Assembly: GCF_006345805.1 (NCBI RefSeq)
Contig: NC_042997.1
Location: 147,188,001-147,252,000 of the forward strand
Source: Octopus sinensis
Taxonomy: Eukaryota
Direction: 5' to 3'
DNA length: 64,000 nucleotides
Made by a program: the position numbers and the translations under genes
Notes under the pieces: model-generated
Databases searched by the model: none
What the model was told of the DNA's origin: nothing
What the model saw: the letters and a program-made list of their open reading frames with translations, nothing else
In this document: one piece after another, positions 29,736 through 60,030 of the stretch
Numbering within the stretch: the first letter of the stretch is position 1
How the letters are laid out: each line of letters begins with the position of its first letter

Positions 29736-30917
29736 AATTCATAATTGCCTACAGGGGCCAAACAAAGAGGGGACGATACAAAAGTCAGAGGGCCAGGATG
29801 AAAAACACAAAAATATATGATAAATCGAATAAAAATTTGATAGTAAAAATCGGATGAAACAACAATACAAATTACAAAGACAATGAAGTGTGGGACGGGT
29901 TCTGCTTTTGGCCCCGCAAGCTCCTACCCACCAGTGCGACCTTTTGGAAAAAACTTTCAGGAAACTCTTAGTTGGAGACATTCACACCCACCATTTTGGC
30001 CACAACCTTCCATCTTCTCTTGTATATGCCCGGCGACAGGCACCCCTTCTCCGCCCTTATCTTCCTTTCAGGTGGAAATAAGGGAAGCTGACCAGCCCAA
30101 GGCTGGAGATGAAAGTGCCTGTCACAAACCTTTCATTCGGATCTTCCACTACTTCTTTCGCAATAGTGAGAAAACAGGCCTTGCCTTCTTTGCCCAAGGA
30201 GGGAGGGGGAACAATTTTTATAATCGACTCGGAAGACAGCTGTACTCTTCCCAGTCGTGACAACAGATGTTCTACGTAAACCCTCATTTCAGAAATTTTG
30301 GGGCATTGCACAATCGCGTGGAGGACGGTTTCCTTGTCCTGCTCGCATCTTGGGTACAAGGGTGAACAAGAGCCACCATGCCTTGCGAGTTTATCGCGAA
30401 CCGGTAGCTCACCTTGGAAGCATTGCCAGGTCAGAGATCTCTGGAAGTTATCCAAAGACGCCGGTCTGAATGTTCTTCGGAACATGTTGGTTAACTGATT
30501 TTTGTCGAAGCCCAGGGTCTCCCCCAGGCCGTAGTCATTCCTTGCATATACCGACCTTCTATAAAAGAATGAAGTTGAACCCCCATCGCTGGCATTACCT
30601 GGGTGAGAGAGGAACCGGAGTGCCGGCAGGCACTCCAAGTGGCACTGGTCGTGCTTACTTCTACGTTGGATCCAAGGTTCTAGTTCACTAAAGCTAGTGA
30701 ACCTAGGAAGCAGCTATCTGACGAACGGAGACCACACCTGTTCACCATCCAGGAAACACAACAGATGCCTCAACTTCAGCGCCAATTTGCGTATCAACAG
30801 CCAAGGCATCCCTAGCCCACCTTTTAGCGGGTGTTAGCAGTAGACAGAGCGCTCCACAAGCGGACATTTATTCTTCCACAAAAAGCGGAAAAGGAACTGT
30901 TCCAACTTGTTCAGGGA
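29736..30917 (-). mobile_element. 5'-truncated L1/Tx1-clade LINE (ORF2 C-terminus and 3' UTR)
   Basis: FRFLWKNKCPLVERSVYC*HPLKGGLGMP, then zf-RVT-like LTWQCFQGELPVRDKL...PRCEQDKETVLHAIVQCP; stops and frameshifts; 3' tail homologous to SINE tail A. Confidence 0.88.
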
Positions 30918-31320
30918 ATTCTTTTCTACTCTAGGCACAAGGGCCGAAATGTTTGGGGCAGGGGGCCAGTCGATTAGATCAACTCCAGTACGCAACTGGT
31001 ACTTAATTTATCGAGCCCGAAAGGATGAAAGGCAAAGTCGACCTCGGCGGAATTTGAACTCAAAACGTAAAGACAGACGAAATACCTATTTCTTTACTGC
31101 CCACAAGGGGCTACACACAGAGGGGACAAACAATGACAGACAAACGGATTAAGTCGATTACATCGACCCCAGTGCGTAACTGGTACTTAATTTATCGACC
31201 CCGAAAGGATGAAAGGCAAAGTTGACCTCGGTGAAATTTGAACTCAGAACGTAGCAGCAGGCGAAATACCGCTAAGCATTTTGCCCGGCGTGCTAACGTT
31301 TCTGCCAAGTTAGCAGCCTT
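30918..31320 (-). mobile_element. Family-1 SINE dimer (tail A unit plus tail B unit)
   Basis: Junction AAAGAAATA|GGTATTTCG at 31087/31086. Confidence 0.9.
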
Positions 31321-32148
31321 CCTGGTATCACATAATAAGCTAATGATGTCATTCTGCTGAATTTACTGTAACATAGCTTTATATTGTATCTGTTTTGTTT
31401 GAGTCATATCACTGGCATTTCATAAGGTTTCGAAGCAATCTTTATTTTAGTTACAACATTATTACAAAACAACATCCAATTGAAAAGCGGAGGTTTTTGC
31501 CAGTTATAACAGTTGATGCTTCCTTACGTAAGAAATGAAATGGGTTTTCTCCTTGCCTCCGTTTTCAAACCTCATTACTGAACAAAACTATAACAGTGAA
31601 GTAAGTGACGAGCACGTTAACTTTAATTAATCAAGTTTTTACCTGTACAGAGGTGAGGTAAACAGTATTGAACAATGCTTAACTAAACTGAACGCAAGGG
31701 TGGTAACTGAAAATAACAACAAAAAAATATATATAAAATATTTTTCTCATTTTTCAATTTGAAAAAATTAATAGTTAGACATTCAGTGTATGTAATACTT
31801 TAACAAGAAACAAAATAGGTGGGCGATGGTGGAAATAATATAATTTAGAAAAGGAACATAATTTTTTTTATTATAAAAGTGTTGAGAATAAAATATATGT
31901 ATAAAGTGCAATATTTTCCTTATAGGAAAATGTTACACGTTAAGTAGAAAAAGAAATACAAACACGATTTGTTACCTAAGTTCAATTTGCTATTTTAAAT
32001 TGATTTTCCAAAAAACAAAACAGACAAAAATGCTAAGCAATTGATATAACACGTTTCCCTTCCCAAACATGTTACTTGACAATTTTTTCAACTATATTTC
32101 CTTTTTCAAAGAGTTATACATACGTACATACATACATACATACATACA

Positions 32149-32239
<91 letters not shown>

Positions 32240-32456
32240 CATACATAAATTTACATCTATATATCTATGTACATTAATACATATACATCAATATATGTAT
32301 ATATATATTCATACATCTCTCTCTCTCTCTGTATATATATACACATATATTCATTCATATATATATATACATATATGCATTCATATATGTATATATATAC
32401 ACGCACACACATTCATGCATACAGATACATACACATATATACTGATATATGTATTC

Positions 32457-32505
<49 letters not shown>

Positions 32506-32513
32506 GCACGTTC

Positions 32514-32564
<51 letters not shown>

Positions 32565-35500
32565 CACATATTCACACACACAAACACACACATATACGAG
32601 AAGAGTTCATACATGACAAATAAGTTTTGCATATTTAAACATTGTCCATTTGTGAAAGGGGTAAATCACATACTTTGAACTTTTAAATATACTTAAACAC
32701 AGCTAGCAATTGAAATGAAGATATCGTATTGATAGCTGATAGATCCCACTGTTATAAAAGGTAGTCATTTTCCGAACGATAAGACTCTTTAATATCAGTG
32801 CTTATATCTGTTTTCCATAGCGTTTAGCAGATGAAAGGCAAATCCTCCTTGAAGAGAATATAGAACTATTGCAAAAGCGCACTTCTGAAGTTTGAAATTG
32901 AAACCAAAGGTTTCCACAACCTTAGGGATATTTTGTGCAGTTTTCTTTAATCCATATTATCACTGATCCTGCCGATCTATAATCAAATATATTGCTACCA
33001 TTAACAGCACGTAATTTACTTCAGACAACGTGTATCTAGAATAACATTAACCAGAGTGAGCCTCCATTTATCTCCATGGTGCTAGGATATGATTTGAGGG
33101 AAGCTTGAGCGTTTTTCCTAGCAAGTCAAGCGAGCACGTTAGTGGTTTTCTCGTTAGTTTATTGAAATCAGTGAATTATAGCACCTGATATATAAAAATA
33201 TATTGGATTATATATATATATATATATATATTATATAAACTTTAGATTGTATACATAAGAATTATATCAGCTTACAGGGTGAAGTATATCATTCACTGAT
33301 TCTACTTATGAGTTAGGTGGATTCAGTAGTTGTGAGTTATGCGTCTGGTCTATATGATTAACATAATCGGGAGGATAGAAAAAGGACCGCTGACTATTCA
33401 GCCGGTTTTTGATTCACGATAGAATCAGTGAATATAAATGAATTTCATACACACAAGATTATTTTAGAGAGAACGTTCAAAATGTTTGAATCTGTTGCAG
33501 CATAGAGAATAACAGATCTTTCATGTTTCGCTATATATGAAAGTGAACGATAATATTCACCAGTGAATTGTAGCAGTTGTTGTTTGGCACAGAGCAGTCC
33601 TAACAAAGTAGACCAATGGTTAAAGGTGTTTCAGTATGGCGGTCTAATGTCGGAATAGTTAGAGCTCCGATGAATGCCACGTGATATTGGTTCTGGTTCT
33701 TTATGTTCTGAGTTCAAATCGCGCTGAAGTCAACTTTGCACTCATCCTTCAATGGTCCGTAAATGTAATACAAATGAAATCTTGGTGTCGATTTTTCTCA
33801 TCACGTTCATTTTCACTCCCTCAGAATCAACCACTCTGCAATGAGAGTGGATTGTTGAGTTTCACTCATAATATTCTTTTGCTGCAGGAAATATAAGAGT
33901 AACTTCTTCATTTGCTTCTCTTCTTTACAGACATACAAAACAAAAATAGAAATAATCATTCAACATATCACTGTATGGGTAATAGGGAAAGATGTGTTTA
34001 TTTTCTAACAGTGTACCATTTATTTATCACTATTAAATTAGTTTCAAATTTTAGTACAAAGCCAGTAATTACGGGAGAGAGCTAAGACGATGACATCGAC
34101 CCCCATGCTCAACTGGTACTTATTTTATCGGCCACGAAATGATGATAGGCAAAGTTGATCTCGGCGGAATTAGAACTTAGAACGTAAAGATAGACGAAAT
34201 GCCGCTAAATATTTTCCCCGGCGTCCGAACGATTCTGCCAACACGCTGCCTTTAATCACAAATTGACAGTTGAACATTTCAATAGCTATTGTAAAATACA
34301 CATAAAGATATCTATCGAAATTTAATAGATGTCTGATACGGATTTTATTGATTGCGGATGATAAAGAAAAGACTTGAATGAAAAAATTCTCTGATTCATT
34401 TAATACGAGATTCTATAATTTCCACCTAAACCCTACTTACTTCAAATAAAGATTAGTTCTGTTGTCATTTGGTGGCAGGTCACTACTAATGGAATAATTA
34501 TTTAACTGCATGTGTTTTACCAGTGACTACTCCGTTCAATGATTTCTTCTTTTTTTTTTTTCAAATTTCAAAGAGAGTATGTTGAGATTTACCTCCGATT
34601 TTTTTGCTATTTGTAGCATGCAAAACGACCGTAGTGAGAAACTACAGTTTCAATGCTAAGGATAATACTGTTTAATCTTAGTCCATGCCATGAATGCATA
34701 AAAAGTCAATACGGATTTATCTGCTAAAGTTAAAACAACAACAAAAGCTAAAGGTTACCAACAACATCAACCACGACAATAAAAATTCAATGGGTTAATA
34801 TTCTCATACCTTTAGAGAATTGCATTGTTTTATAAGACCGAAATGAAGAACAGACGATCAAGTACAGGTTATTCGATCCTAGAAAGAAAACAGGTGAAAT
34901 ATTGATCGAAAAGAAGGCTGTATACATTAACATCATTGTGAGATTAACTTTGAACTAAAGATTTTTAATATTGATAAGGATCTACATATTTTAAGAGAAG
35001 GTACAGATGTTTTCTTGCCCACGGACTGTGTTCTTTTCCGCATTTTTGTAAAGTTGAAGATACACGCACTTGGCTTCAACTAGCTAAAGACTTGCAACCA
35101 TCATAGAATTGTTGACACAAAAAAATTGGAGTCCTGAATGTAGGTTTCTATACCTATATAACTTAATGAATATAGTCATCAGTTCCCAACGATATTGAGG
35201 TATATATATATATATTGACATACTCGGTTTGTCCGTCCACACACCCACATCACAGAAACAGAGATAAAATGAGAATTCAAATATATAATTTATGGAACGT
35301 GCAGGTTCTGCATAATCTTGGCCCATGAAACAAGATAAAGACGAACTGCGAACGTATAGTTAACATTTCGCGGTTAGTCAGAGGCGAGTCAAAGAGGTAA
35401 ACATTAATCATGAAAATATTCAGTAAAACACTTAAGGGAGGAAGGGACACTATTAAGAGCATGACAGAGTTAAAGTAAGAAAAAAGAAAACCACATATAT

Positions 35501-35711
35501 AAGTTTTTTTATGACGAGAATGTTAAACACAAACTAAATCGAATGCGTTGAACATGGGAAAATGAAAATGTAAAATAGTAGTCCGAGACGAAGACAAGGG
35601 TAGAGTAGCGAAAGCAAGTTAGCAGTTCACTATTTGAATGGCAGAGAAGAGAAAGAAACAGCGGGAAAAGAAGTGAAGAGTCGAAGTAGAGAAGGATAAA
35701 GATACAGGTAA

Positions 35712-36322
35712 TGGTTTCAAATTTTACCAGAAGGACAGTAATTTTGGGGAAGGGGATGAGATGATTACATACATTAACCTCGGTGTTCAACTGGCTTTTA
35801 TTTTATCGACTCCGAAAGGATAAATTGACCTCGGTGGAATTTGAAATGAGAACGTAAAGACGGACGATATGCCGCTATTAATTTTTCCCGGCGTACTAAC
35901 GGCTCTTATTTCTTTATTGTCCATAAGGGGCTAAACATAGAGGGGACAAACAAGAACAGACAAACGGATTAAGTCGATTACATCTACCCCAGTGCGTAAC
36001 TGGTACTTATTTAATCGACCCCGAAAGGATGATAGGCAAAGTTGACCTCAGCAGAATTTGAACTCAGAACGTAGCGGCAGACAAAATACCTATTTCTTTA
36101 TTACCCACAAAGGGCTAAGCATAGAGGGGACAAACAAGGACAGACATAGGTATTAAGTCGATTACATCGAATCCAGTGCGTAACTGGTACTTATTTAATC
36201 GACCCCGAAAGGATGAAAGGCAAAGTCGACCTCGGTGGAATTTGAACTCAGAACGTAACGGCAGACAAAATACCGCTAAGCATTTCGCCCGACGTGCTGA
36301 TGATTCTGCCAGCTCAACGCCT
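35712..36322 (-). mobile_element. Family-1 SINE trimer (A, A, C tails)
   Basis: Junctions at 36091/36090 (|GGTATTTT) and ~35905 (|GAGCCGTTAG). Confidence 0.9.
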
Positions 36323-36794
36323 TAAATAGTGACACAGATAATGAGAAGTAGGAGTAAGAGGATCACAGTCAGATAAGAAAATTACGAACAATGGTGGGTT
36401 AGATTGTGTGCGTCATAACAAGTAATAGCAAGATACAAAATACAAATGCAGGTGGAACCACCGGAAGTTCTTCCTTTCCTTAACTATTCAAACAAGGGAA
36501 TGTGAAGTCTCAGCCTTAAGGATAGTACAGCTTAACCATAGTCCAATTCATATATGCAGAGAAGATTCATGAAGATTTGTCCGATGAAGAGGAAACAAAG
36601 TCAGACCGCAGAAATATGTTTCGCTGTGGGTCAGGGACGAGATAAATAGATGAGAAGCGATTGCCAAATGGTTAAGTTGTTCAGGCAAGGGAAGAGACAA
36701 CGGACACAGACATAGATGAGTGCTTATGTAGTTTCTTTTGTATCTATATGAACTTCGAGATCGATGCTACTGAGTGGTAATTTTGACAAGAAAA

Positions 36795-37194
36795 GGCGGC
36801 GAGCTGGCAGAAACTTTAGCACGCCGGGCGAAATGCGTAGCCGTATTTCGTCTGCCGCTACGTTCTGAGTTCAAATTCCGTCGAGGTCGACTTTACCTTT
36901 CATCCTTTCGGGGTCGAAAAATTAAGTACCAGTTACGCACTGGGGTCGATATAATCGACTTAATCCGTTTGTCTGTCCTTGTTTGTCCCCTCTGTATTTA
37001 GCCCCTTGTGGGTAGTAAAGAAATAGGTATTTCTTCTGTCGTTACGTTCTGAGTTCAAATTCCACCGAGGTCGACTTTGTCTTTCATCCTTTCGGGGTCG
37101 ATTAAATAAATACCAGTTACGCACTGGGGTTGATATAATCGACTTAATCCGTTTGTCTGTCCCTGTTTGTCTCTTTGTGGGTAGTAAAGAAACA
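36795..37194 (+). mobile_element. Family-1 SINE dimer with 14-bp TSD
   Basis: Internal junction at 37025/37026; TSD GGTAATTTTGACAA at 36776-36789 and 37195-37208. Confidence 0.92.
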
Positions 37195-37461
37195 GGTAAT
37201 TTTGACAAATGTTTTTCTTATAAACCTCGTGTCTTGGCAATCCTTGTCAATGGAAGCTGTTTAGGAAACTGTTTATCCGGTCAGATGAACTGTTCCTATA
37301 ATTTAAGGGTTCTAATCTTGTCACACAGTGTGTCGTTGTGATTCTATTTCAGAATTACATTAAGGATATGCGTATAAGCGGAATACTCAACCACTTCAAT
37401 GAACAAATGATGCTCGTGCAATGAAATCGTCGAGAGAGTATTTTCTCTTTATCTATTTGAG

Positions 37462-37555
<94 letters not shown>

Positions 37556-38320
37556 CGTCTGGCTGTTTGTATGTCTGTCTGTCTCTCTCTGGTGACACCA
37601 TCATCATCGTTGTCGCCGTCAGGCCCTAAATGCATCTGAAATGTTCGTAATATAACTCAATAATGTTACATGGTTTATCAGCCAGCATATTACCACGCTT
37701 TAGGCTTTACATCGTCTCTTAATACGATGTGGATTCGGATTAGGTTTTGATGCATGAGCAAACTACACTAGCAAATTCACATCTCAGTTAAAACGGAAGA
37801 AAGAGTTGTAGCATAACATTCAGCAGCAAATATTTAATTAACATGTTGTGCGCAAACTACTGAGATTTATACTATGTTTTAGCAGCAAGATAACTACAGT
37901 TAACAGGCGTTAACAATATGGTTTCTGTCAGATCTCTGAAACTTCTGCAGTGCTAACTCTGATTGATAAAGTAGGAGAATGTTCTAGGTTTGGAAAACAG
38001 TTAACCAATGGAATTGAAAACAACTTGCGTAGGCGGAATTAGCTTCAAATATGTCATTTTCCCACATTCACACATAAAATGTAAAATTGAAATAAAATGT
38101 ATTGGATGACTGTAATCCGAAGTATTGTCAGTTATGAAGTTTCCAGAAGTACGAAAGCTAAAGTTTTTTCTCATAAATATTTCTCATGGTTGTTGTCAAA
38201 CAAAAGGAAATAATTCAGATATGTTAAGCCTTAGCAACCAGCGAGTAGCATCTCCGTAAATTCTCTCATTGACTCTTCCTGCTCGCTATTGCTTTTCAAC
38301 CCCAGGTCAACGCTGATTAA

Positions 38321-40071
38321 CGCTTCAGATATGAATACAGAATCGCGGCAAATGCCAGTAGCAATCCAAAAACCTTCTTTGCCCATGTCCAACGGAATTC
38401 CCGCTTGAACAACCAAATTGCAACGTTGGCAGACTCAACAGGCGTATCGATTGAGGACCCTTATCAACAGAGTCAATTATTTGCCGAGGCTTTTTCAACT
38501 ATTTTCGAACAAGATGATGGTCGTGAACCCCTTCCATTTGATAGATCGGTACCTCCAATGCTTCGATTGGTCATCACGCGGGACGAAGTCGAACGCGTTA
38601 TTCAAGGCCTCGATGTCAACAAGGGTCACGGCCCTGACGGCATACACCCACGGGTTACCAAAGCGTTGGCTCCGGTCATCTGCGAGCCCTTAACACGTCT
38701 ATTCAATATGCCATTGGCGACGGGTGTTATACCTGCGGACTGGAGAACAGCGATAATCTGCCCAATTTTCAAGAAAGGGAGCCGCGAAGACCCGCTTAAC
38801 TACCGACCGGTTTCCCTTACTTCAATAATCAGCAAGATGTTCGAAACCATCCTTAAGAAAGGTATGATGCTCCACCTCCAAAACACAGCCTCTATCTCTG
38901 ATTCCCAACACGGCTTCGTGCCGAAGAGATCATGCTTGACCAACTTACTGGTAATGGAAGAATTGGTGACGCGCATCATCGATGATAGTGATACTGTTGA
39001 CATGGTTTTATTGGACTTTGCCAAAGCTTTTGACTCGGTAAACCACCGCCTATTACTTGTCAAGCTTCAAACATATAGTTTCCATCCGATATTGTACGAT
39101 GGATTGGTGCCTTCCACTCAGATCGCTCCTTCCAAGTCCAAGTTAATGGTTTGCGATCCGACGTCTCCAGTGCGAGCAGTGGCGTGCCTCAAGGTTCAGT
39201 GCTTGGGCCCTTATTGTTCTTAGTCTTCATAAATGACTTGCCCGACGACCTCACGCAACACACCCTTCTATTTGCCGACGATGTCAAACTGGTCGCTCCT
39301 GGCGGTGATATAGAGGATCTTCGTCGATGCCTCCACCAAATTTGGAGATGGTCTAACGAATGGGACCTGTGTCTGAACGTGACAAAGTGCTGTCATCTGC
39401 CTGTTGGCTCTCCTCCTGCAACTCAACTTGATTTCGAGCCGGGTCGTCTGCAGCTGGAGAGGACCAATCAGGTAAAGGACCTGGGTATCTTGGTGGATTC
39501 CTCCTTTTCGCCTTCGGCCCAGTGCATCCATGCTGCCAACAAAGCACGCGGAGTTCTGTTCTTGATTCGACGAACATTCGGAATGCTCACAGCAGCCATA
39601 TTCCTACCACTCTATGTCACGCTGGTGAGACCCATATTGGAGTACGGGATTCAAGCCTCTTCTCCTTATCTCCTCAAAGACATACAGCATCTTGAAAGAG
39701 TCCAGAAGCTGGCTACCCGCATGGTTCTTGGTTTCAAGAATTTGTCTTATGAAGAAAGGCTGAGGACGCTCGACCTTTATTCTCTAGAAAAACGACGACG
39801 CCGTGGTGATCTCATTCTTGCTCACAACATCATAAGCGGAAAGTGTAACCTCTCGAAAGAGCTGTTCTTCACTCCTGCTCCAGAGCGTCGGCTGCGGGGT
39901 CATTCCGAAAAGCTCTATCTGCGACGATTTCATCTCAATCAAAGGAGAGGGACTTTCTCCGTCCGGGTTGCGGATCCGTGGAATAAGCTGCCGGACGAGA
40001 TGGTGAATCTGCCGACGACCGCTCGGTTCAAAGTCTCCCTTGACCACAAGTGGCCTGAACTCTTTACATGA
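38321..40071 (+). pseudogene. LINE ORF2 reverse transcriptase (5'-truncated, single frameshift at ~39088)
   Basis: NPKTFFAHV, GPDGIHPR, NYRPVSLTS, QHGFVPKRSCLTNL, LDFAKAFDSVNH, [frameshift] DIVRWIGAF, SGVPQGSVLGPLLF, LFADDVKL, RPILEYG, RGHSEKL. Confidence 0.95.
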
Positions 40072-40140
40072 ACACCACCCAGTACGTAACTCCATGTCCC
40101 CCTACATGGCCTTGCTTTTTGCTTTTTGAGCCAAAAAAAT

Positions 40141-40174
<34 letters not shown>
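38321..40174 (+). mobile_element. Young 5'-truncated CR1-type LINE
   Basis: RT-coding region; 3' UTR hairpin CCATGT-CCCCCT-ACATGG (40092-40109); (TAAC)8 tail at 40141-40172; visibly more GC-rich than flanks. Confidence 0.95.
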
Positions 40175-40175
<1 letters not shown>

Positions 40176-40279
40176 TATCACAGCCTTTCCAGACACGACC
40201 ATTTTATCTATTTAGGGAGTATCCAAAACTATATTAGTCAATGTCTGCTATTTTTCGATACTAATGCACAACTTAAGTC

Positions 40280-40725
40280 GGTGAGTTAGCAGAGTAGTTA
40301 GCATATCGGACAAAATGCTTAGTGGCATTTCGTCTGCTTTTACGCTCTGAGTTCAAATTCCGCGGAGTTAAACTTTTGCCTTTTATCCTTTTGTGGTTAG
40401 TGAAAAAAGTACCAGTTGAGCACTGGGATCGATGTAATCGACTAATCATAGTTTAAGGCCTTGTGCTTATAGTAGAAAGGATATTAGTTTCAAATTTGGG
40501 CACAAGACCAACAGTTTCTGGCGAAGAGGCAAGTCGATTGCTTCGATTCCAGTGTTCAATTGACACTTATTTTTTAGATCCCGAAACGATGAAGGGCTAA
40601 CCTTAACCCTAACCATAACCTCGGCAGAATTTAGACTCAGAACGTAAAGGCAGATGTAATGCCGCTAAGCATCTTACCCGGCGCACTTACGATCCTGCTA
40701 GCTATCCGCATGGAAAGGATATTAG
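40280..40725. mobile_element. Two family-1 SINEs tail-to-tail (+ 40280-40485, - 40488-40710)
   Basis: Minus copy flanked by 13-bp TSD GAAAGGATATTAG (40475-40487, 40713-40725) taken from the tail of the plus copy. Confidence 0.88.
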
Positions 40726-40947
40726 GGTATAATTTAAAGTAAAATTAGTCACTTTTTATAGTAGATCGATGGGCTGCTCATTGGTTCCTAATCCTCACTC
40801 AAAGGTAGTTGGAGGACAATGGTATGGATAGAGAATGATGTAGTTGGGAAGAAAGTGCAAGAATTTGATAATAACATCGTTGATAGAGGTTAATGTAGCA
40901 GTTAGGTAGTAATTGTAGATGGATGGCACTATAATAGGTTGATGCAA

Positions 40948-41325
40948 GGCGGCGAGCTGGTAGAATCGTTAGCACGCCGGGCGAAATGCTTAGTGGTATT
41001 TCATCTGCCGTTACGTTCTGATTTCAAATCCCGCTGAGGTCAACTTTGACTTTCATCCTTTCGGGGGTCGATAAATTAAGTACCAGTTACGCTCTGGGGA
41101 CGATATAATCGACTTAATCAGTCTATCTGTCCTTGATTGTCTCCTCTGTGTGTAGCCCCTTGTAGGTAGTAAAGAAATAGGTATTTCGTCTGTCTTTATG
41201 TTCTGAGTTCAGATTCCGCTGAGGTCGACTTTGCCTTTCATCCTCTCGGGGTCGATAAATTAAGTACCAGTTGCGTATTGGGTTTGATCTAATCGACTTG
41301 CTCCCTGCCCCAAAATATAGAAAAG
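40948..41325 (+). mobile_element. Family-1 SINE dimer with 15-bp TSD
   Basis: Junction AAAGAAATA|GGTATTTCG at 41179/41180; TSD TATAATAGGTTGATG at 40930-40944 and 41326-41340. Confidence 0.92.
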
Positions 41326-41391
41326 TATAATAGGTTGATGTGATTTTGTGGGTGGTGTCCAATGTATCATTAAGGGGATAATGCTTTACAT

Positions 41392-47961: not shown

Positions 47962-48021
<60 letters not shown>

Positions 48022-48571: not shown

Positions 48572-48680
48572 TACTTTCTCACCTTCCCGACCGTTAAACT
48601 TATACACCCGTTTGTTGTTTATACGCCTCTCTTTGCCTTTTGTTTTTTTGTAAATTTCAACTGTCTGTCTGTCTGTCTGT

Positions 48681-48715
<35 letters not shown>

Positions 48716-49483
48716 GTACACCACCACAAAGAAAATCTCTTGAAATTTTCATCCTTGATCCATCGCACATCCATGAAAGTAGAATGGAGAGAGGAATGTC
48801 CCATAACTCAATTGGTCTCCATTTCAGCTAAATAAACTAGGGTTACATAAAATAAAGTATCTTTGTCGACCAGATCCAAGAATCAAACATACGACCTCAT
48901 GACTTTGAGCGTAGCCCCGAAACCACTACCCCATGTGCTTTCACAAAGCTGGTGCTACATACGCACCACAGGTAATTAAATCGACCGAAACGTCAAAATT
49001 TGTGGTTTTATGCCAAAATTAGAGAGCATTTCTTTCCCTATAACTTGTACAAAAAATAAAAATTAATTTTATAGAATCAGAAAATGGAGAAAATTGTTGA
49101 AGCTATACGATATAAATAAATGTACTGGAATATTTTAGCTTGCCAAAAGAGAAATTAATGACTTGGAGAAGCCGGTGGTTTAAGTAATAAGAAATAATTT
49201 GAGATAACTGTCAAGGTTATTTCAAAAATATATTATAAATCAGAAGGAAAACAGTTAAAGCGAGCTGTTTTTTTCGTCTCATTATTAATTGTTCCAGAGG
49301 GTAAGAAAAATGAATGATAATATGAGATGTCTTTCGAAAGAAGACGTCTATAGATGTGGCCAGCAAGTAATGTTTTGTATCACTGGTTTTTATTGAGACA
49401 AGACGATGAATATTTCTATGTGTGAATATTTCAAACTCTTTCTCTCTCTATTGATATTTATTTCCATCTCTCTCCTGTTCACT

Positions 49484-49527
<44 letters not shown>

Positions 49528-49958
49528 ATAGTGACTTCGAAGTTTCGCCCACTAAAGCCATCGTGCGACGATGCCAATAATATTCTTGTTTAAGAATAAT
49601 AAATTTGTACTCTACAAAAGTATAGACTAACCCATGAGATTAATGCTAAATTGGCTTTTATAATAACTGAAAACATCTCTTGCTCTCTCTTCCTTCCGTC
49701 TCGCTCTCCCCCCTCTCTCTGTGACACACACACATACACACACATGTGTATATGCAGAAGTTCGTGGCTTAGTGGTTTGAGTGTTGCACTGAAAATCGTA
49801 CGAATGTTGTTTTGATTCCTGCACAGGCGATGCGCTGTGTTCTTGAGCAAAACACTTCATTTAACGTTGCTTCACTTCTCTAAACTGGATGAAAAATGAG
49901 TAACCCTGCGACAGTTCAGTATCTAGTCTTGCAGGTGGGGAATATATACGCCATAGAA

Positions 49959-49992
<34 letters not shown>

Positions 49993-50001
49993 CATATATA
50001 T

Positions 50002-50050
<49 letters not shown>

Positions 50051-50089
50051 TATATATATATATTATATATATATATATTATATATATAT

Positions 50090-50133
<44 letters not shown>

Positions 50134-50277
50134 CCAATTATATACAATTTATTTATTATTTAGTACTTTAGTTTTTGGTAAATGTTTTATCGTATCTTTA
50201 ATTTTTTTTCAATATGGTATGATTTAAATATATCATTGTTGAATTGCTTCATGGTGGTTCTTCTCTAATTTATATAC

Positions 50278-50366
<89 letters not shown>

Positions 50367-51399
50367 ACTGTATAATAATATATTGCTATACAGTCATTGT
50401 TTTACTATGCGTCCTCCGTAGTAGCTTTCTCTCCGTAACTTACAAAGCCTTTCCGGCTTGTTTACAGATATTATATATATCTGTTAAACTTAGATCAGAT
50501 TTTGAGATGATACATGTTAACACACACACATACATACAGAAAAAATATATTCATCCAATACGTAAGAATAAACATGAGTTATCCATGTGAAAAAAGGAAG
50601 AGCACAACACCCTACTAATGGATGAAAAGGGATTCAGTGGAGGTGAGGGATGAATGATGCGACAAACGAAATATACCTGATTTTGAATCGACTTAAGCCT
50701 TCTCCGAAATTGCTGGTCTTGTGACTAAATATGACACCAATATTTAGGATATATACCAACTAACTCTACCAAATACTAAAAACAACACCCACTGAATGAT
50801 AGTGAGAAAGTACCACAAAAATGTAATTGGGAAATCTATTGTATACATGCAAATATTCTAACAGAGTAAGTTGCTTTGAAACTACAATTATCAATGCTCT
50901 GTGACGATGCGTTAGTCGGAACGCACCATGCTCTAAAGAGACCCTTCGATCAAATTCAAATCTGCGAATTCTTCAGAAATTCTCTAGCTTTCTATAAACA
51001 ATGCCATTCAGCGTCCAACATGATTTTTAATTGACCCAATTCAGGCTAGCAGGTCAATGGTGTTATGTCAATAACTCTTTGTACTGTATAAATTATGAAT
51101 TCCGCGTGATTTATTTCGGTTCTACGCAGTATTCAAGCCAATCACTAGCAAAATCACAAGGAATTTACTTTTTATCTAATTCAAGATAATTCTAAGGATT
51201 TCTGAATATGTAAAATTGTGTGTGTCGATATGAGGTGCATATGCTCATCATCTTGTAGTGGGGGTATGTTTCTTTTGTAAACGAATATGAGTGGTTGTGT
51301 ATGGTTACTTCTTATGTACGCCATAAGCATGCCACAAGCACAAAAGTAATTTTCTGTAAATGGTCATTTCCTTGGATTTAAACGATGCAAATTAGTTTA

Positions 51400-53520
51400 C
51401 TTTATTCATTCCTCGCATACTCAAGCATTTTCAAGCCTTTTCTGAAAATCTGCTGTTTGCAAAAACTTGTTAATATATAACAATAGACGCAAATGAATAT
51501 ATACAGCCTAGATACAAGTGCAGGTTCTGACGTGCCTGTGATGTCACCGTGAGAACAATTCTTTCTATTGATGGCGTTGGAAAGGAATTTTGAAGAAAAT
51601 TGTCTCAAGGCAGTAATTTGCGGCCACTTTCGGTAAGCTTTCAACGATGTGATATCTCCTACATAGCATGGTAAAAAAACAACATTTTCTAGCACAACAT
51701 AAAGGTTTGAAGCCATTCTTATGTCTTTTATTAATCAATTATTCGCCTTTTCCTGTATAGCAACAGTATATTCTTCTGGACTGAATGGATGTATTTTATC
51801 ACTTGTCGAAGAGACGCTGCACTTCTTGTTAATATTGTTGTGTTGATATCTTAAAAGCGGCGAGCTGGCAAAATTGTTAGCACGCCGGGAAAAATGCTTA
51901 GCAGCATTTTGTCTTTCTTTATGTTTTGAGGCCAAATTCTGCCGAGGTCGACATTGTATTTCCTCGTTTCGGGTTGATAGACTAAGTACTAGTTGAACAC
52001 TAGGATCGATGTAATCGACTTACCATCTCCCAGAACCTGCTGGCATTATGCTAAATTTGAAATCAATATTGTCGGCATCTTCTTGCTTATGAGATATGAA
52101 TATCTGCATCACTTTTTGCTGTTATGGTGAGTGTTCCGCCTCCAAGTTTCTGTTCAATTTGATTAATATAGATGTCCATGGGTTACATTAAAACAGCTGA
52201 ACGCTCAGAGTACTTATTCAGGAGTTTTTTCCTAGTTTCAGTATATCATTATTATTGAGTGAGAGAGCAGTGCATGCCATCAAAGTGACACTGAGGTAAA
52301 ATATACGAAGTCCAGCATACCCATCATGACTACCCGTCTGATAAGTGTACACCAGGCACAACCACACGTGCGCGACATGGCGATCTCATATCAAGGATAA
52401 ACAGCGCATGACCTTGCAGGTGGGGCCCAGTTAGAATTTTCTTCTGGTCGGGTAGCCCGTCCCGCTCAAAAAGTCCCTGAATAAGGGTTGTTTAAGTATG
52501 ATGAACGAACCACCCATGTTTCCAAAGGTAAATTATCCAAACCCCCAAGAATTCCTTTCAACACACGTTTATGATGCTATGCTCCCCAACCACTTCTGCT
52601 ATAATCAGAGATGCACATATCGTCAGCCACTAAGGGATATGGTCAACTGGTTAAGGTCAAACAACTGACAAGCAAATCTGTGGTATTGAGAAGAATATTT
52701 GCTGTAGCCCATCTTTTATACCAAGACAAAACAATGTACATGATAACACTTCGAATCAGTTAAGGTCAGGAATCATGAGAGCCACTGTCTGGTACTGCAT
52801 CAGGGCATTTATTATTATCATTGTTATTATTATTATTAAAGGTGGCAACCGGATAGAACCGTTAGTACGCAACACAAAATACTTAGTATTTCGTACGTTT
52901 TGATCTCCTGAGTTCAAATTCCGCCAAGGTCGGCATTGTCTTTCCTCCTTTCGGGGTTGATAAAATAAGCACCAGTGAAGAGCTGAGGACGATGTAATTA
53001 ACTTCCCAATCCACTCAAAACTACATGTCTAATGCCAAAATTTCAAATCGTCATTTCTGCTGTTAAGTATACATGTGATGTTTTCATTTCTACCTTTAGT
53101 GTTTAGTAGGTATTGTCTAAGTGATACGATGTGACCCTCAGAGACTGTTCTGCTAATGTCATTGTTGATGCGGAACTTGGTCGCAGTGGTGCGTATCTTT
53201 CTAGTCACTGTGTCCAAGTTGCAGGTCTCTTCAAGTGTCCAATCAACTATTCTAAATATCATACTCTAATGCACTGGAAGAGCAAAAGTTTTATGAGATA
53301 TGGTATTATTGAATTCAAACATGTCTAACTTCCATATTTTCTGGATTTTACTGACATATTCCTTTTCAGACAAGTTTTCCTCATGTATACACAATATTCT
53401 CAGTGGAGATAAGGGAGATAGACAGGCCATTCGTATCCATATTCTTTGGCAAAAACATCAAGTGATTACCAAATGAGGCATTTACACTGACCAAAATCTA
53501 TTCCTATGTTCTGTGAGAAT
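51400..53520 (-). mobile_element. Decayed R4/Dong-clade LINE fragment with three nested insertions
   Basis: Minus-strand FSQNIGIDFGQCKC, IWKLDMFEFNNTISHKTFALP, IVDWTLEETCNLDTVTRK, HIVSLRQYL, EEYTVAIQEK in the expected order; interrupted by SINEs (~51857-52068, ~52840-53047) and by 52257-52806. Confidence 0.75.
52257..52806. mobile_element. ~550-bp non-coding interspersed element flanked by (ATT)n
   Basis: ATT repeats on both sides; partial second copy at 4975-5135; no ORF. Confidence 0.7.
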
Positions 53521-55109
53521 GTTCTGAATAGCTCTCAGTGTATCATGAAATCGAATATTACCTTAATATAGATTAAAGCAATCGACCAAAAAAAAAAATG
53601 TGTAACATGAAGTCTTCTATCCTCTAGAGATTCTGACAAGTAGCCTTGCCATTTCCTGAACAGAGTTTACAAGGATTCACTGTCAGAACGAAGAATGTGT
53701 GGTTGTTTGTTCCTTCTCGAGCCATGCCTAGCTAATAAGGGCCTGTTTCCTGGTTTCATTGGTGCATAGGTTCCCCGGCTGGATGGGACACCGGTCCATT
53801 GCAGGTGAGCTTCTAGATGCAGGAGGAAAGAGTGAGAGTAATTTGTGGCGAAAGAGTCAGCAGAGGTTCGACATTACCTTCTGCTAGATCCGTGTGGAGC
53901 TTGTTGTCCCCTCACCATTTTGTGTTTTGATTTCTGTACATTTCAACCACACACACAAACACAGAGTTTTATTTTAAGATGTCTTGCCAATAGGGAAAGA
54001 ATCGGTATCTATCCTAGATCCAAGGCTTCTTCATTGGAATTTCAACAACATCAACGCGTTTTTTTTACATGTATGTATATGTGTATGTGTGTATGCATGT
54101 GTGTGTGTGTGTTTGTGTGTGCAAATCAGGTGCAGTTGAACGTTAGGCGTATTAATGGTCAACTGGAATTTATACAAGATACGGGTTTAGTAATATCATT
54201 TATATTAAAGTGATGTTTAATATGGATATGAAAATATTCACTTCGACAGTTCGATGAAGTGCATATACGTGAAAGGAGATATTGCGATTAAAAAATGCCA
54301 AACATTTAGAATTGGATAAATTTTAAATGATATTGAAAATTCTTTAATAAAATTCTTAAAAACCATAGGGAAAGGATATCGCTAAGATTGTTGAATGCTT
54401 TGAATGAATATTTTAATTCACCAAGATTAATATTTGATGAGTTGAAAGCACAAGAAGGTCTGGGGAATGGCTGTAAGTTGATTTGCCATTAATATGGCTT
54501 GAATTTTATTTGGCTGTCAACTATATATAAGAACTGAAAGAGATAGTCAATCAAAATAGTAATGTGTATTTGCCTTAAGTTGTCTTCTGCAATTTTCCAT
54601 TTTAAAGTAAAATGAAAAAAGTAAAGTTGATAAGAGACTATGATAAAATAATGTGGAATATAGACTGAAATAGAATTTAAGAAATAAATATAATGCAGTC
54701 GGTTGAGTGTTTTATAGTATTAAATTGTATAAGACATTGAAAATTACAGTGTAAGATTGAAAAGTCATAGATATATAGTTAAGAATTTCTCTTAGCAAAC
54801 TAAATGGTTTCAGGTTCAGTTCCACTACACATTGGTCAACTGTTTTTTTTTTGTTTTTACTATAGCCCGCATCAGCCAATGCAATGTGAGCGAATTTGGT
54901 GAACGGAATCTGTGTGAATGTTCATTGTATACATATTTACATATAGAAAAACACACACATATGTTTATACACATACATTTATGTGTATGTATTGTGCGCG
55001 TGAATATGTCACCCTACCGCTTGAGAGCACGTGTTAAAATTAGTACCAGTGTCAAGGCGGTGAGCATGCAGAATCCTTAGATCGTAACTACGCTCTGCTA
55101 CAGTTAAAA

Positions 55110-55340
55110 GGCAGCGAGCTGGCAGAATCGTTAGCACGCCGGGAAAAATGCGTAGCCGTATTTCGTCTGTCGTTACATTCTGAGTTCAAATTCCGTCGAG
55201 GTCGACTTTGGTTTTCATCCTTTCGGGGTCGACAAATTAAGTACCAGTTACGCACTGGGGTTGATGTAATCAACTTAATCCGTTTGTCTGCCCTTGTTTG
55301 TCCTCTCTGTGTTTAGTTCCTTGTGGGTAGTAAAGAAATA
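55110..55340 (+). mobile_element. Family-1 SINE (tail A) inserted in the head of another family-1 SINE
   Basis: Imperfect 17-bp duplication GGTGAGCATGCAGAATC (55059-55075) / GCTGAGTTTGCAGAATC (55341-55357); host SINE resumes at 57020-57183. Confidence 0.8.
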
Positions 55341-55357
55341 GCTGAGTTTGCAGAATC

Positions 55358-57019
55358 ATCGCACTCTTCCGTTGTTTTACAAGGTGTACGTGAGTCATTT
55401 TTGACGGTATTTTCAGTGTTAACAACGTTTAGTTTGTTTCAGTGTTTTAACACTTCGATTAATTGTTTTTGTGCTGCTTTCCAGCAATTTTCTTGTGCTT
55501 CCCCTCCTCATAGAGGCGGGTCGGCTTAGTGAAAAAGATCTCTGAAGAAGACTCCAGCTTTTCAGATATGTCGTCTTCAGAGGAAGAATTTTTTAAAACG
55601 GTCAAAAGAATGGACGAAAAAGTAAATGAAGAAAGAGAAACTTTGCGGACTTGGCAAAGTGCCAGGAAAATATATTGATATTGGTAAATTTGAAAATTAT
55701 AAAAATTTATTAATTCTGGATGGATTTGACGTTAAATTGTTCCCCCCCCCCACACAAGAGACGTTTAATAATATGAAAAAAGAACAATGTTGTACAGAAC
55801 ATTTTCAATAATTAAAGGAAAAATTGATGTCATGACCACGGGTCAATTAGAAAAAGCGTTAAGACCAATATGGCATGAAATTGTGTACTAAGTTCGGAGT
55901 AGTGGAGGTGAGATTCAAGGACGCGGCAACAACAAAAAAGCACGCAGCAACTACCATTAAGAGGGAGGAAGTGGTGCTTTTGCTCACTTACCGTGGACAA
56001 CGTGCGACCAGAGTTAGGGTGGTGGGAAATCCGCCAGAGATAGATATGGCCTGGATAGCAGCCGCTGTCCTTCTGGGAAATAAGGGCAACATAGCGATTC
56101 TCCACGTCACAAAATGCAAAGTGTTATATGGAAGGGACAGATACTGGACATGATTATTCAAGGTTAAACCGAAACCCTAGAAAACATTACAGAAACAATA
56201 ATTACGGACGATGTGATAATGAGGTCAGGATAGAGGGCAGAATCCCTCGATGCTTTAAATGTGGCCTGAAGGGCCACATCAGAGCGGACTGCCCTTCACA
56301 GACCAAAAAGACGGAGGAGATACAAGAGGAAGAGCCCCAGAAAGAGCAAGAAAATAGAGAGGAAAAATATCAACAGAAGTAGAAATGAAACAGACAACGA
56401 ATGGGAAAGAGGAAAAAAGGAACAAGAGGAAAAGAAAAAAATCAAGCCCCATAACCACCCATCACCCACCCACAACCTCTTCAACCCACCCTTCCTCTAC
56501 AGACACCAAACCTGCCCATCTCCCTCTGACACAGAAAAATGTACAAACAGACAAGAACTCCCAAACTCCCCCGCCAGACAAAAAGAGAAAGAAACAAAAT
56601 GCCAAATGAAAAACTGTGTAAAGAAGTGTTATCTTGGGTAGACTTTAAAACAGTTGGAACAACGAGTTTTGACAGCATAAACGGATGGCACTGTTACGCG
56701 TTGTGCTCGGATGAACAGAAAGAAAAAATAACAGGATTTAAAAGCGGAGGTGAAATTGGATTGGTACGTATTACCAGAGTATATGACATATGAGGAAGTG
56801 GTGGACGAATTTGGAATAGATATTCTTTCAGGAACGAAGTTTAAAAGGTATAAATGAAGCTGCTATGAAGTGAGACAGAGTGGCTTCATTCCATTTTTCT
56901 TTTCACTTTTCATGTCATTTTTTTCATACGTTGATTCTAATTTCTTTTTCTCTGTATGTCCCCATATGTTGTGTATTGTCCCCTCTATGTTCGTCCCGTA
57001 GTGGGTAATAAAAAGATTT
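55358..57019 (+). mobile_element. ORF1-only non-LTR retroelement (Tx1-related, HAL1-like)
   Basis: ~210-bp leader, frameshifted ORF1 from ATG 55568, no endonuclease/RT, ends in the shared tail TGTCCCCTCTATGTTCGTCCCGTAGTGGGTAATAAAAAG. Confidence 0.75.
55568..56793 (+). pseudogene. Gag-like ORF1p: RRM-like region, CCHC zinc knuckle, charged/Pro-rich tail
   Basis: TRVRVVGNPPEIDMAWIAAAVL; EGRIPRCFKCGLKGHIRADCP (CX2CX4HX4C); several frameshifts. Confidence 0.8.
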
Positions 57020-57411
57020 GAATCGTTAGCATGCTGGGCAAAATGTTTAGCGGCATTTCGTCCATCTTTACATTCTGAGTTCAAATTCCGCTGTGGTCGA
57101 CTTTGACTTTCATCGTTTTCGGGCCGATTAAATAAGTACCATTTGGACACTGAAATAGATGTAATCGATTTACTCCCACCCCAATGACTACAAACAAAAA
57201 AGGTATGTATATACACATACCATTTCACACTGTATATTTATATCATACCTATATATTATACTTAATTACTATTCGTATTTTAAGATTTACTTCAGTCATA
57301 GACAAATTTCAGTGTGACACATGACTATATTTTATTTACAGTATTGTAGTCACTCAAACTGCCGACAGTGTGCTTGTAGTTGAGTATCACATTATCTTCG
57401 TTATACAAGTA

Positions 57412-57612
57412 CAATAATCCCTCGCCATATCGCGGTTCACCTATCGCGCACTCAGTACATCGCGAATTTTTCTGGCTAATATATGTAAATTTATATTGCG
57501 GACTCCTCATTATATCGCGAGGAATTTTTAGGAATTTTCAATTTTTTTCGATTTGAATTATTTCTGTGGAAGGTTTTGGAACGTAACACCCACGATAGTA
57601 AGGATGTTACTG
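57412..57612. mobile_element. pogo/Tigger-type MITE
   Basis: Imperfect TIRs CAATAATCCCTCGCCATATCGCGG / CCCACGATAGTAAGGATGTTACTG, TA on both sides, ~200 bp. Confidence 0.65.
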
Positions 57613-58706
57613 TAGAGGTAAACATCACAAGTTTATCCAACAGAACAAGTGTAAAATTTCAAATCTATTCATAGTAGGTATAACTAGTCCTCTTTGGTGT
57701 CATCTCTAACACTGTCGACTGGCATAGGACAAATACATGGTTCAACTCCTGTAGGCGCTTTTACTGTTCCTCTTTTACCTTTCTTCTATGATTTTGGAGT
57801 CTCCGGATAAAGTAGAACGCTGAGGTGTGTTCAAATTTGTATACTTCCCTATAACTTAACGGTTCGGCAAAAAGGAGGGAATAAATACGTACCTGACTTA
57901 AAAAGCAAGTACTGTAATCAATAGTCACCTAAACCTTTCAAGGCAGCCCTTGAAAGATCGCAATCTAATGACTGAAACAAGTTAAAGTGTAAAAATATTT
58001 TCTTTTATTTTTAGCGATTTTCTTTATTGAACTGTATCATTCTAAGTCTTCAACATAAAAGTGTCATTTGATGTATAGGTTTGCTCTTTCATATCAATGA
58101 TTTCAAATCTATTCATAGTAGGTATAACTAGTCCTTTGATCAAACTTATTTATCATGTTATTCTCAGCGACATTTTAATTCACACTTAACTAAATCCTGC
58201 AGAAAAGCAGAAGTAAATATGTCGAGTAATTTATCATATTCTTTGATAGCATCAATCCCATTTGAGTCTTCCTCGAAGCCTACTTTAAAAATGTGTTAGA
58301 ACTATTTTTACTATAACTGTTACAGAATTATAATTCTTAGATTATTGGATCTTGTTGTTTAGAGTGGAGAAGATATCAAAGTGTTATCGAATTTTTGCTA
58401 TTATTAAACCGAATTTACGTTCAGCTTTAATCTCATTCAATAGAATGAGGAAATGGAAAAGTGAAACAATGTTTTTATCGATCCTCGTTGTTTTGGCTAG
58501 AACTGGCAAAAATATCTTGAGAGGAAGTCAAGAAAGTTAGAAGCATTGTATATATTATGATTAATTAGATTGTTGTTGGCTTTAAACCCAGCACGTGTAT
58601 GTTTTTATGTTTTGTTTTTGTAAATTTGTTCCATCGCGTTGTTCAGTCTAGAAATAAAACATATTCATTATATGGCTGAAGGGAAACTATTTCCATTATA
58701 ATAATA

Positions 58707-58908
58707 ATCTTTTCTACTAAAGGCGTAAAGCCTGAAATTTTTGGAGGGGGGCAAGTCGATTACATCGACCCCAGTACCAAACTAGTACTTATTTATCGAC
58801 CCCGAAAGAATGAAAGGCAACGTTGACCTCGGTGGCATTTGAACTCAGAACGTAAAGACGGGCGGAGTCTCGCTAAGCATTTTGCCCGGCGTGTTAACGC
58901 TCGCTGCC

Positions 58909-58954
<46 letters not shown>

Positions 58955-59296
58955 TGATAATAATAATAATCTTTTCTACTAAATGCACAAAGCCTAAAAT
59001 CTGGCAGAAGGGGAATAGTCGATTGTATTGACCGCAGTGTTTCCCTCGTTCTTAATTTATGGACCCCGAAAGGATGAAAAGCAAAGTCAACCTCGACGGA
59101 ATTTGTACTCAGAACGTAGCGACGGGCGAAATGCCACTAAGCATTTCAAAAATAATAATGGTAATAATTTCAAATTTTTGCCACAAGGGCAGCTTGGGTG
59201 GGGGATTAAATCGATTACATCGACCCCAGTGCGCAACTGGTATTTATTTAATGGACCCCGAAAGGATGAAAGGTAAAGTCGACCTCGGTGGAATTT
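58707..59296 (-). mobile_element. Three consecutive family-1 SINE copies separated by (AAT)n
   Basis: ~58707-58910, 58970-59146, 59167-59296 (last two lack the head). Confidence 0.88.
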
Positions 59297-60030
59297 AAAG
59301 AAGTTGACGAAATGCAAGAAGAAGACCTCCAGGAGAAGCCACAAGAGAAGCCCCAGGATGGGCAAGAAGAGGAAAAAATGGTACCAGTAGAAACAAAAAA
59401 AGAAAGAGGAAGAATGGGAAAATACCGGAAAAAGAAAAAGGAAGAGGAAAAAGATAAGTCCAACACATACAGAATTCAAACTACAGCTATCCAAGACCCA
59501 ACCATACCCTCTTTGTCCTACTCTCGCCCTGCAGACACTAAGCCTTACCACTCCCCTCCATCACAAAAGAAAAGAAAAGAACACTTTTGACACAATTAGT
59601 CACAAATCCCTCCCCCCCATTGGCTGTTTTGCGTGTGTAATATATGATGATGAACTGTTTGAAAGGGTAATTGAATGGGAGAACACAGTTCATGTTGATG
59701 TAGAGTACGAAGAGTGTAATGGAGTAGCAGGTACGGTTCTGTTAATAACGGAACAGCAAATGATGGAAATGAAGAGACACAAAAGGGAATGTGAACTGTG
59801 GAAGACTTTAACACAGAAAAGCTACCACAGTTTATAGAATATAAAGAACTTTAAAAAGGTATGGAGTAGACATAGTGGAAAACAGAGAAAAGGAAGCAAG
59901 TAATGTTACTTGATGGGGCAAGTAACACCATTTTCATTTCACATTTTTTTCATCTTTCATTATATAATACGTTTTATGTCCCCATGTGATATATGTCCCT
60001 CTTTGTTGGCCCGTTATGGGTAAAAAAATA
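59297..60030 (+). mobile_element. 5'-truncated relative of the ORF1-only element
   Basis: DEMQEEDLQEKPQE...PADTKPYHSPPSQKK parallels EEIQEEEPQKEQE...STDTKPAHLPLTQKN; ends TGTCCCTCTTTGTTGGCCCGTTATGGGTAAAAAAAT. Confidence 0.75.

Follow-up and report, generated by a model that had tools for sequence, protein, structure and literature searches.

How three classes of retroelement, two of them lacking a reverse transcriptase (RT), come to carry one 3' end is the question raised by a 64,000-nucleotide stretch of Octopus sinensis DNA (contig NC_042997.1, positions 147,188,001 to 147,252,000; hereafter the window). The window harbours a fragment of a Tx1-like long interspersed nuclear element (LINE), two elements that retain only the first LINE open reading frame (ORF1-only elements) and many short interspersed nuclear elements (SINEs), and a sequence-only reading had proposed that a single Tx1 RT mobilises both parasitic classes through a common tail. 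We find that a 47-base tail forms the 3' end of all three classes, and that insertion is site-specific, with families using fixed sites within other repeats, generating 13–16-bp duplications and stacking into mixed arrays. This target-site specificity is an addition to the earlier proposal. Because tail, exact insertion sites and mixed arrays are shared, our sequence analysis strongly supports trans-mobilisation of the ORF1-only elements by a Tx1-like ORF2. Support is also strong for one SINE subfamily (GGGCAAT-tailed, inserted at the SINE A-box), and weaker for the largest SINE subfamily because its main junction had no LINE counterpart in four pattern searches.

The tails lie where they had been placed, at 29781 to 29735 on the minus strand for the LINE, at 56972–57018 and about 59994–60032 on the plus strand for the ORF1-only elements, and on the SINEs, for example at 36981–37025 and 55296–55340. 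In all, nine SINE units, the LINE fragment and both ORF1-only elements in the window carry the tail. All ten pairs among five window tails (29–43 identities in 47–51 columns) exceed 1000 of 1000 shuffles, including the LINE against the SINEs (34–36 of 48 columns identical), and a tail profile returned 159 matches in 561,534 bases of window and related loci and none in the shuffled control. Across the 2.72-Gb genome several ORF1-only families have the tail as their 3' end, and one exact 28-mer of the SINE tail occurs 47,088 times (control 0), a lower bound for tailed SINEs. The last 49 bases of a young ORF1-only element and a young LINE are identical at 48 positions, with likeness falling off upstream, and between elements whose ORF1 proteins are only 26–29% alike near-identity breaks off about 47–50 nt from the end. 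Long poly(A) tracts are absent at element ends, and AATAAA lies inside the tail, only 5–10 nt before the element end. Among 55 metagenome loci of distant relatives, many of them without a 3' end, no tail match was found at E up to 10, the best segments being 23–48% identical.

Is the tail proper to the LINE? The window copy is a 1.18-kb 3' piece (29735..30914, minus strand) with a broken ORF2 C-terminus bearing a zf-RVT finger (E 7.7e-6), an untranslated region (UTR) of about 200 nt and the tail (29735..29781), recognised by profile and pairwise comparison. It covers ORF2 residues ~814–1134 at 57–59% identity to intact relatives, and its family is dispersed in the genome. Among 30 related loci 26 have a tail match at the 3' end, a figure that includes the window itself and six loci from one duplicated block and so corresponds to about 20 independent tailed copies. 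The duplicated block (L036 and L043–L046, G000 C18:36.3–36.5 Mb) spans several kilobases and has the LINE inserted tail-to-tail in an ORF1-bearing element. A search for RT returned 150 scored matches; many lay within frames longer than 1,100 aa, and all 20 stretches picked for long ORF2 frames end in the tail (14 standard, 6 variant). Fourteen of these constitute a young LINE group with an ORF1 of about 460 aa, an ORF2 of 1132 aa and the tail in every copy; the other six belong to a second LINE family, with the variant tail and located in (TC)n. Three LINEs targeting (TC)n also stand in tandem with a 5.5-kb period at L167–L168 (G000 C5:65.24–65.26 Mb). The LINE tail is thus no stray SINE piece, as might have been objected: it ends 26 of the 30 related loci and all 14 young LINEs.

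The LINE frames belong to the L1 group, with ORF1 followed by an ORF2 (1132–1138 aa) that comprises an N-terminal APE endonuclease (Exo_endo_phos), RT (RVT_1) and a C-terminal cysteine finger (zf-RVT). Among solved structures ORF2 is closest to human L1 ORF2p (E 2e-64; R2 reaches 3e-25), and its scores are 328 bits with a 'Transposon TX1' protein, 310–359 with fish proteins bearing ZCCHC3-type RNA-binding domains and 221 with human L1; the nearest named homologues of the LINE protein come from Argonauta hians and a cuttlefish. Members of the Tx1 clade have an ORF1 with RNA recognition motifs (RRMs) and a CCHC knuckle. Here zf-CCHC scores above the cut-off in three of four ORF1 frames, and residues ~58–226 of the predicted ORF1 structure fit tandem RRMs (best Z 9.1, root-mean-square deviation 2.5 over 78 residues). 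The elements also prefer multicopy targets, namely the SINE A-box, mariner, (TC)n and sites in old relatives. From protein scores and target preference, membership of the Tx1 clade is likely; our RT tree, built without curated Tx1 or L1 references, is silent on clade placement. LINE ORF1 evolves under a dN/dS (ratio of nonsynonymous to synonymous substitution rates) of 0.08–0.09. Young LINE copies are 95% identical pairwise and window-type copies, which have deletions, 61%. There are several LINE families with different targets, probably active at different times, for which the notion of a single RT is too simple.

The ORF1-only tier is represented in the window by two families. The O1 element (55365..57018, plus strand, ~1.65 kb) is full-length, with a 5' UTR, a decayed ORF1 in which an RRM-like core, CCHC knuckle, linker and C-terminal domain can be traced, no ORF2, and the tail (56972..57018; profile match and pairwise comparison). 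O1 is a dispersed 1.7-kb family with full-length copies on several chromosomes; near-full copies are 80–83% identical, and pairwise identity within O1 is 78%. The O2 element (59296..60032, plus strand) had likewise been read as ORF1-only, which holds through its relatives, where the ORF1 core lies about 700 nt from the tail with no ORF2; the copy itself is 5'-truncated and lacks the core, retaining linker, C-terminal domain, 3' UTR and tail. A third, young lineage (92% pairwise identity) has a frame of 504 aa, uninterrupted by stops in 12 of the 30 loci. As in HAL1, ORF1 stands alone with no ORF2 before the 3' end, and the elements amplify as units with target duplications; matching duplications of 9–16 bp were found in four of ten rows scanned (L052, L053, L064 and L066, with L064 listed twice). 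Besides a CCHC knuckle, two RRM folds are predicted in the encoded protein.

These elements are not simply recent deletions of neighbouring LINEs. We built an ORF1 tree of 100 rows (a quick version without bootstrap, excluding copies with fewer than 120 core positions), in which 73 rows are ORF1-only (ORF2 coverage below 40 residues, tail at most 1.3 kb from the ORF1 core). Their distribution needs six label changes, at least two of them forced by well-supported branches, and the clades of young ORF1-only elements (37 rows) and of young LINEs (14 rows) stand far apart, each with a Shimodaira–Hasegawa-like approximate likelihood ratio (SH-aLRT) of 100; their proteins share 26–29% identity. With dN/dS of 0.117 and 0.114 for two pairs between ORF1-only families, and 0.16–0.32 for four pairs inside the young family, the reading frame is kept by purifying selection in long-lived lineages separate from the neighbouring LINE ORF1. 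Seven further rows combine ORF1 with an ORF2 stub, and therefore deletion derivatives arise too.

A C-terminal segment of 85–100 aa after a charged linker looks related across ORF1-only families (L182:585–850, L233 and window 56600–56860). It had no family match and its predicted model is of low confidence; as LINE A1 ORF1 also has a C-terminal segment, we dropped it as a feature unique to ORF1-only proteins. Three loci (L038, L040 and L041) at which one LINE seemed to have a pair of ORF1 genes in tandem were reread as stacked elements because tails and duplications separate the units in L040 and L041. Junctions within one young array (L181, L182, L238 and L233) partly differ in sequence, which suggests that a former target duplication is carried at the element 5' end.

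SINEs carry the tail in very large numbers. Their head shows A-box-like and B-box-like motifs by eye, judged against the usual consensus; as a tRNA it gave no gene in ARAGORN and no tRNA match in Rfam at E up to 10. Dispersed copies terminate exactly at the tail and have target duplications, and SINE groups are 85–88% identical pairwise. The exact 28-mer is followed by GGTA in 27,432 cases (58%), by TATA in 5,691 (12%) and by A-box sequence in 132, and GGTA also follows SINE tails outside SINE arrays. The join of tail to SINE position 51, matched as a 31-mer across the junction, is present 17,525 times, frequently within 184-bp arrays. Arrays that repeat in tandem every ~184 bp for six units or more lie, for instance, at G000 C1:8.97 Mb, 15.417 Mb and 16.065 Mb.

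Where do the elements insert? At 12 of 13 O1-family 3' ends the neighbour is the SINE A-box, joined at position 17–19 in 11 and decayed in 1, while the upstream side consists of the SINE's first bases and a 13–16-bp duplication. The window copy illustrates this arrangement. A host SINE head (55341..55364, plus strand), a 5' remnant with the upstream copy of a decayed target duplication, precedes O1, and the remainder of the host (57019..57176, plus strand) restarts at position 17–18, within the A-box; a shared-tail SINE (55108..55340, plus strand) lies immediately 5' of the split head. We ruled out that O1 and the downstream SINE form one composite unit: host SINEs carry three different tail types, and at L064 the host's own variant is present in the duplication on both sides. 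LINE-type ends join the same A-box base at L004 and L014. Of 11 exact non-SINE tails at the A-box, four have ORF2 sequence upstream, four ORF1 only, and three are unclassified. A degenerate tail-to-A-box pattern gave 2,444 matches, the first 30 comprising 28 SINEs and two ORF1-only elements. SINEs whose tail is LINE-like (GGGCAAT) favour this site, with 1,200 at the A-box against 792 at GGTA, whereas GGGTAGT-tailed SINEs number 132 against 27,432, an odds ratio of 315 between two tail forms.

Other targets are shared as well. A second site, just 5' of the mariner transposase start, holds a LINE (covering 1101 ORF2 residues), deleted LINEs and ORF1-only units, stacked three deep. Young LINEs and young ORF1-only elements insert at common sites within a short, old relative that bears ORF1, and an ORF1-only unit stands directly next to the young LINE in six of 14 stretches. 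Young ORF1-only copies at a second target form a subclade of their own (7–10 rows, SH-aLRT 83–94), and the CCCATCT tail form is common to LINE A1 and most ORF1-only copies at LINE A1's site.

We postulate that a Tx1-like ORF2 protein recognises the tail, probably in the form of a short stem-loop that overlaps AATAAA, cuts the target and reverse-transcribes from the nick. Both enzyme-less classes would thus be copied, alongside LINE RNA, into the LINE's own target sites; ORF1-only elements would probably provide their own RNA-binding protein and package their own RNA. The site would be set by the partner's endonuclease, possibly aided by pairing of a few read-through bases. Recognition by the Tx1-like RT would then be of the 'stringent' kind. 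We regard this mechanism as probable, with two bodies of evidence weighing against it, one concerning the structure of the tail and the other the insertion junctions.

As to structure, a CCC-N5-GGG hairpin had been described as kept while its loop changes. The motif holds in the SINE and at the two ORF1-only ends; the stem of the window LINE copy is damaged (GCCC-CTGT-AGGC), and the loop, 4–6 nt across families, is more variable than the stem. For a four-pair stem in 28 representative tails, the tool alignment gave 87.5% pairing (16 of 500 shuffles as high) with two compensatory cells, and a re-registered alignment 93% (124 of 2000 shuffles as high) with one, in the (TC)n family. Covariation, which had been suggested as a check, thus amounts to one or two compensatory cells and does not go beyond shuffles. 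Folding z-scores fall below -2 in just one of eight tails, and some tails favour another pairing. Finally, the tail overlaps a poly(A) signal that could by itself conserve part of it. The hairpin is plausible on these data. An alternative is that the tail is an inherited transcription-termination or polyadenylation module and the RT relaxed like that of human L1, for which the internal AATAAA and the non-significant covariation speak. A SINE transcribed by RNA polymerase III would need no poly(A) signal, however, and the main SINE form has AGTAAA; the lack of long poly(A) tracts and the sharp limit of near-identity despite proteins about 27% alike argue against it too, and we think it improbable.

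As to the junctions, four pattern searches for GGTA and TATA junctions found no LINE or ORF1-only tail (2, 1, 0 and 3 matches, the 2 and the 3 being SINE-like and the 1 unexamined), with patterns that can miss an old or diverged partner. Conversely, searches at the young LINE's main target, in (TC)n and among five mariner-site matches all yielded zero SINE tails. The intact young LINEs are therefore apparently not the SINE's carriers. At the A-box we found no intact LINE, and by pairwise identity the SINE copies there (85%) appear to be younger than both O1 (78%) and the window-type LINE (61%). A rival reading is that only the ORF1-only elements depend on Tx1-like LINEs, whereas most SINEs owe their spread to a different LINE or to tandem expansion in place, with the tail a relic captured from a Tx1-like element. 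The prevalence of the GGTA junction without a LINE counterpart, the many SINEs in 184-bp tandem arrays and the fact that in the window this SINE's head and body are also found with two or more other tails would all fit. Against this stand the dispersed SINEs, flanked by target duplications and ending precisely with the tail, the integrity of the tail in at least 47,088 copies, the exact junction that one SINE subfamily has in common with LINEs and ORF1-only elements, and the limits of the search patterns; we consider a separate carrier unlikely, though less so than a mere polyadenylation module. For the two parasite classes, then, the earlier claim of mobilisation by a Tx1 RT is strongly supported for ORF1-only elements and one SINE subfamily, and less so for the largest SINE subfamily.

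Tail recognition by the Tx1-like RT may be real and yet not choose the site by itself. The RNA could remember its site: read-through bases from the old target duplication would pair with DNA at the nick, and every lineage, endonuclease or not, would go back to the site of its master copy. Site choice does track lineage in enzyme-less elements, as seen in the 315-fold difference between SINE subfamilies and in the ORF1-only subclade, and GGTA follows SINE tails even outside SINE arrays. With AATAAA 5–10 nt from the end, cleavage would land in the flank, and for R1Bm accurate priming requires downstream target sequence, according to the available part of PMC7265360. On the other hand, tail variants also follow LINE subfamilies, as with the CCCATCT form, so partner choice explains the pattern equally, and links between subfamily and target may equally mirror different eras. 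We offer this site memory as a tentative, non-exclusive addition to the ORF2-tail mechanism. Extended further, and just as tentatively, it would describe a strict-tail Tx1-like clan with a self-nesting ecosystem, in which enzyme-less parasites inherit the site and use read-through RNA bases as guide; SINE and ORF1-only lineages would then home to fixed sites, the SINE's own promoter included, with no encoded nuclease.

Each tier is already known separately, in HAL1 and HeT-A, in shared SINE–LINE tails, in Tx1 targeting and in SINEU. HAL1 proper derives from L1-clade (not Tx1) elements and relies on poly(A)-based mobilisation, and HeT-A forms mixed arrays with TART. The octopus ORF1-only elements are likely of an origin independent from HAL1. 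In the portions of the literature available to us, to which all citations here refer, HAL1, HeT-A and Ag-Sponge are ORF1-only non-autonomous LINEs (PMC5786205, PMC5753468), and retention of ORF1 for packaging of the element's own RNA has been proposed for such elements (PMC5786205). The octopus elements resemble them in having one ORF1-type protein, no RT and reliance on an autonomous relative. They differ in that the partner is Tx1-like rather than of the L1, Jockey or CR1 clade, the link is a specific 47-nt tail, the targets are interspersed repeats, and several lineages coexist.

For Tx1 itself, crocodilian families target a mariner transposon (Tx1-Mar) or microsatellites, and mobilisation of SINEU by Tx1 has been inferred from shared target preference (PMC4494074). 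The octopus system is similar in that a SINE is tied to Tx1 by its targets, with mariner and microsatellite targeting, whereas SINEU has small nuclear RNA heads and poly(A) ends, its partnership comes from targets and shared heads and not from a demonstrated shared tail, and the portion of the account available includes no ORF1-only tier (PMC4494074). Tx1L, Keno, Kibi and Koshi are members of the clade, Kibi targeting (TC)n (PMC4494074). Like them, the octopus LINEs have an ORF2 with endonuclease, RT and zinc finger and use fixed sites in other repeats, one family lying in (TC)n as Kibi does; unlike them, they also target the SINE A-box and old ORF1-bearing relatives.

Stringent pairs had been described as mostly CR1, L2 and RTE, to which L1-clade pairs must be added: maize ZmSINE2/3 with LINE1-1_ZM and Chlamydomonas SINEX-3 with L1-1_CR (PMC3472496, PMC3747384). 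Of 58 SINE/LINE pairs the L1-clade ones discussed are those of maize and Chlamydomonas, and octopus is unmentioned in the parts of both papers that were available (PMC3747384, PMC3472496). These pairs share with ours a conserved 3' end of about 45 nt, a proposed hairpin and an L1-clade LINE with a tRNA SINE. They differ in being plant or algal and in reported compensatory changes, which are weak in octopus, and the available accounts include neither target specificity nor an ORF1-only tier. We found no literature on an animal Tx1-like LINE with a tail common to a tRNA-type SINE and ORF1-only parasites, although Repbase, Dfam or SINEBase may hold some of the families. Ohshima and Okada (1994) reportedly described the octopus SINEs OK, OR1 and OR2, and the tailed SINE is probably the same as or related to these. 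OR2 has been termed a CORE-SINE, with no named LINE partner in the available part of PMC4758252; bivalve SINEs are partnered with CR1-Zenon, Nimb, CR1 and L2, with Tx1 unmentioned in that of PMC11481361. Octopus vulgaris has 80 L1-Tx1 families, 13 recently active, reported there without partnerships or targets, and its genome is 11.6% SINEs (PMC13282606, in part). The available portions of PMC11481361, PMC4758252, PMC5804259, PMC3531059, PMC9004415 and PMC13282606 do not describe the system.

The remaining window SINEs display the same junctions on a small scale. A shared-tail SINE at 29386..29616 (minus strand) has a ~17-bp target duplication starting GG on both sides, and another at 23913..24134 (plus strand) is followed by SINE position 51. 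At 30915..31320 (minus strand), adjoining the 5' break of the LINE fragment, a full shared-tail unit (31320–31087) is fused to position 51 of an other-tailed SINE; a similar fusion at 40946..41314 (plus strand) has an outer duplication of about 15 bp. A stack of two shared-tail units at 35770..36323 (minus strand) has junctions at position 51 and at the A-box (position 17), and a dimer at 36793..37200 (plus strand), with the tail on both units, is flanked by a 14-bp duplication that starts GGTA. Pairs joined at position 51 thus carry outer duplications, the second unit sometimes being other-tailed, an arrangement consistent with one SINE landing in another and joining it seamlessly at the 5' side. 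From about position 170 onwards, other SINEs that keep this head and body carry a different tail, of which there are at least two: one terminates in AGAAAAG and frequently precedes TAT/ATT repeats, and the other terminates in TTTGAAAC; other-tail copies lie at 24231–24396, 30915–31085, 58708–58908 and 62854–63065, and at 777–990, 34036–34252, 51854–52067 and 62124–62326.

Elsewhere in the window, a separate LINE fragment at 38321–40071 (plus strand) matches Pfam RVT_1, is about 25% identical to the Tx1-like ORF2 and lacks the shared tail; by motif we take it to resemble CR1. Two frames at 19509–20199 (minus strand) resemble a decayed Tc1/mariner transposase by eye, with no clear Pfam match. 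The O2 element (flank 60033–60130) and two relatives (3' flanks of L083 and L103) end at one site in another short repeat, which resembles a Helitron-associated element. A homologue search with a 218-aa piece from the window gave no match, and microsatellites dominated the repeat-finder output for the whole window.

Plant and algal cases underlie the still open proposal that stringency is ancestral in L1-group RTs and was relaxed later (PMC3472496, in part). The octopus system provides an animal case for it, one that is directly testable, with stop-free LINEs and parasites whose copies are about 92–95% identical. It also points to a likely partner of a highly abundant octopus SINE, and its ORF1-only elements persist as old selected lineages, not short-lived deletions. 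The 315-fold link of two tail bases to insertion site provides a handle for telling apart, in target-primed reverse transcription, sites chosen by the endonuclease and sites to which the RNA guides.

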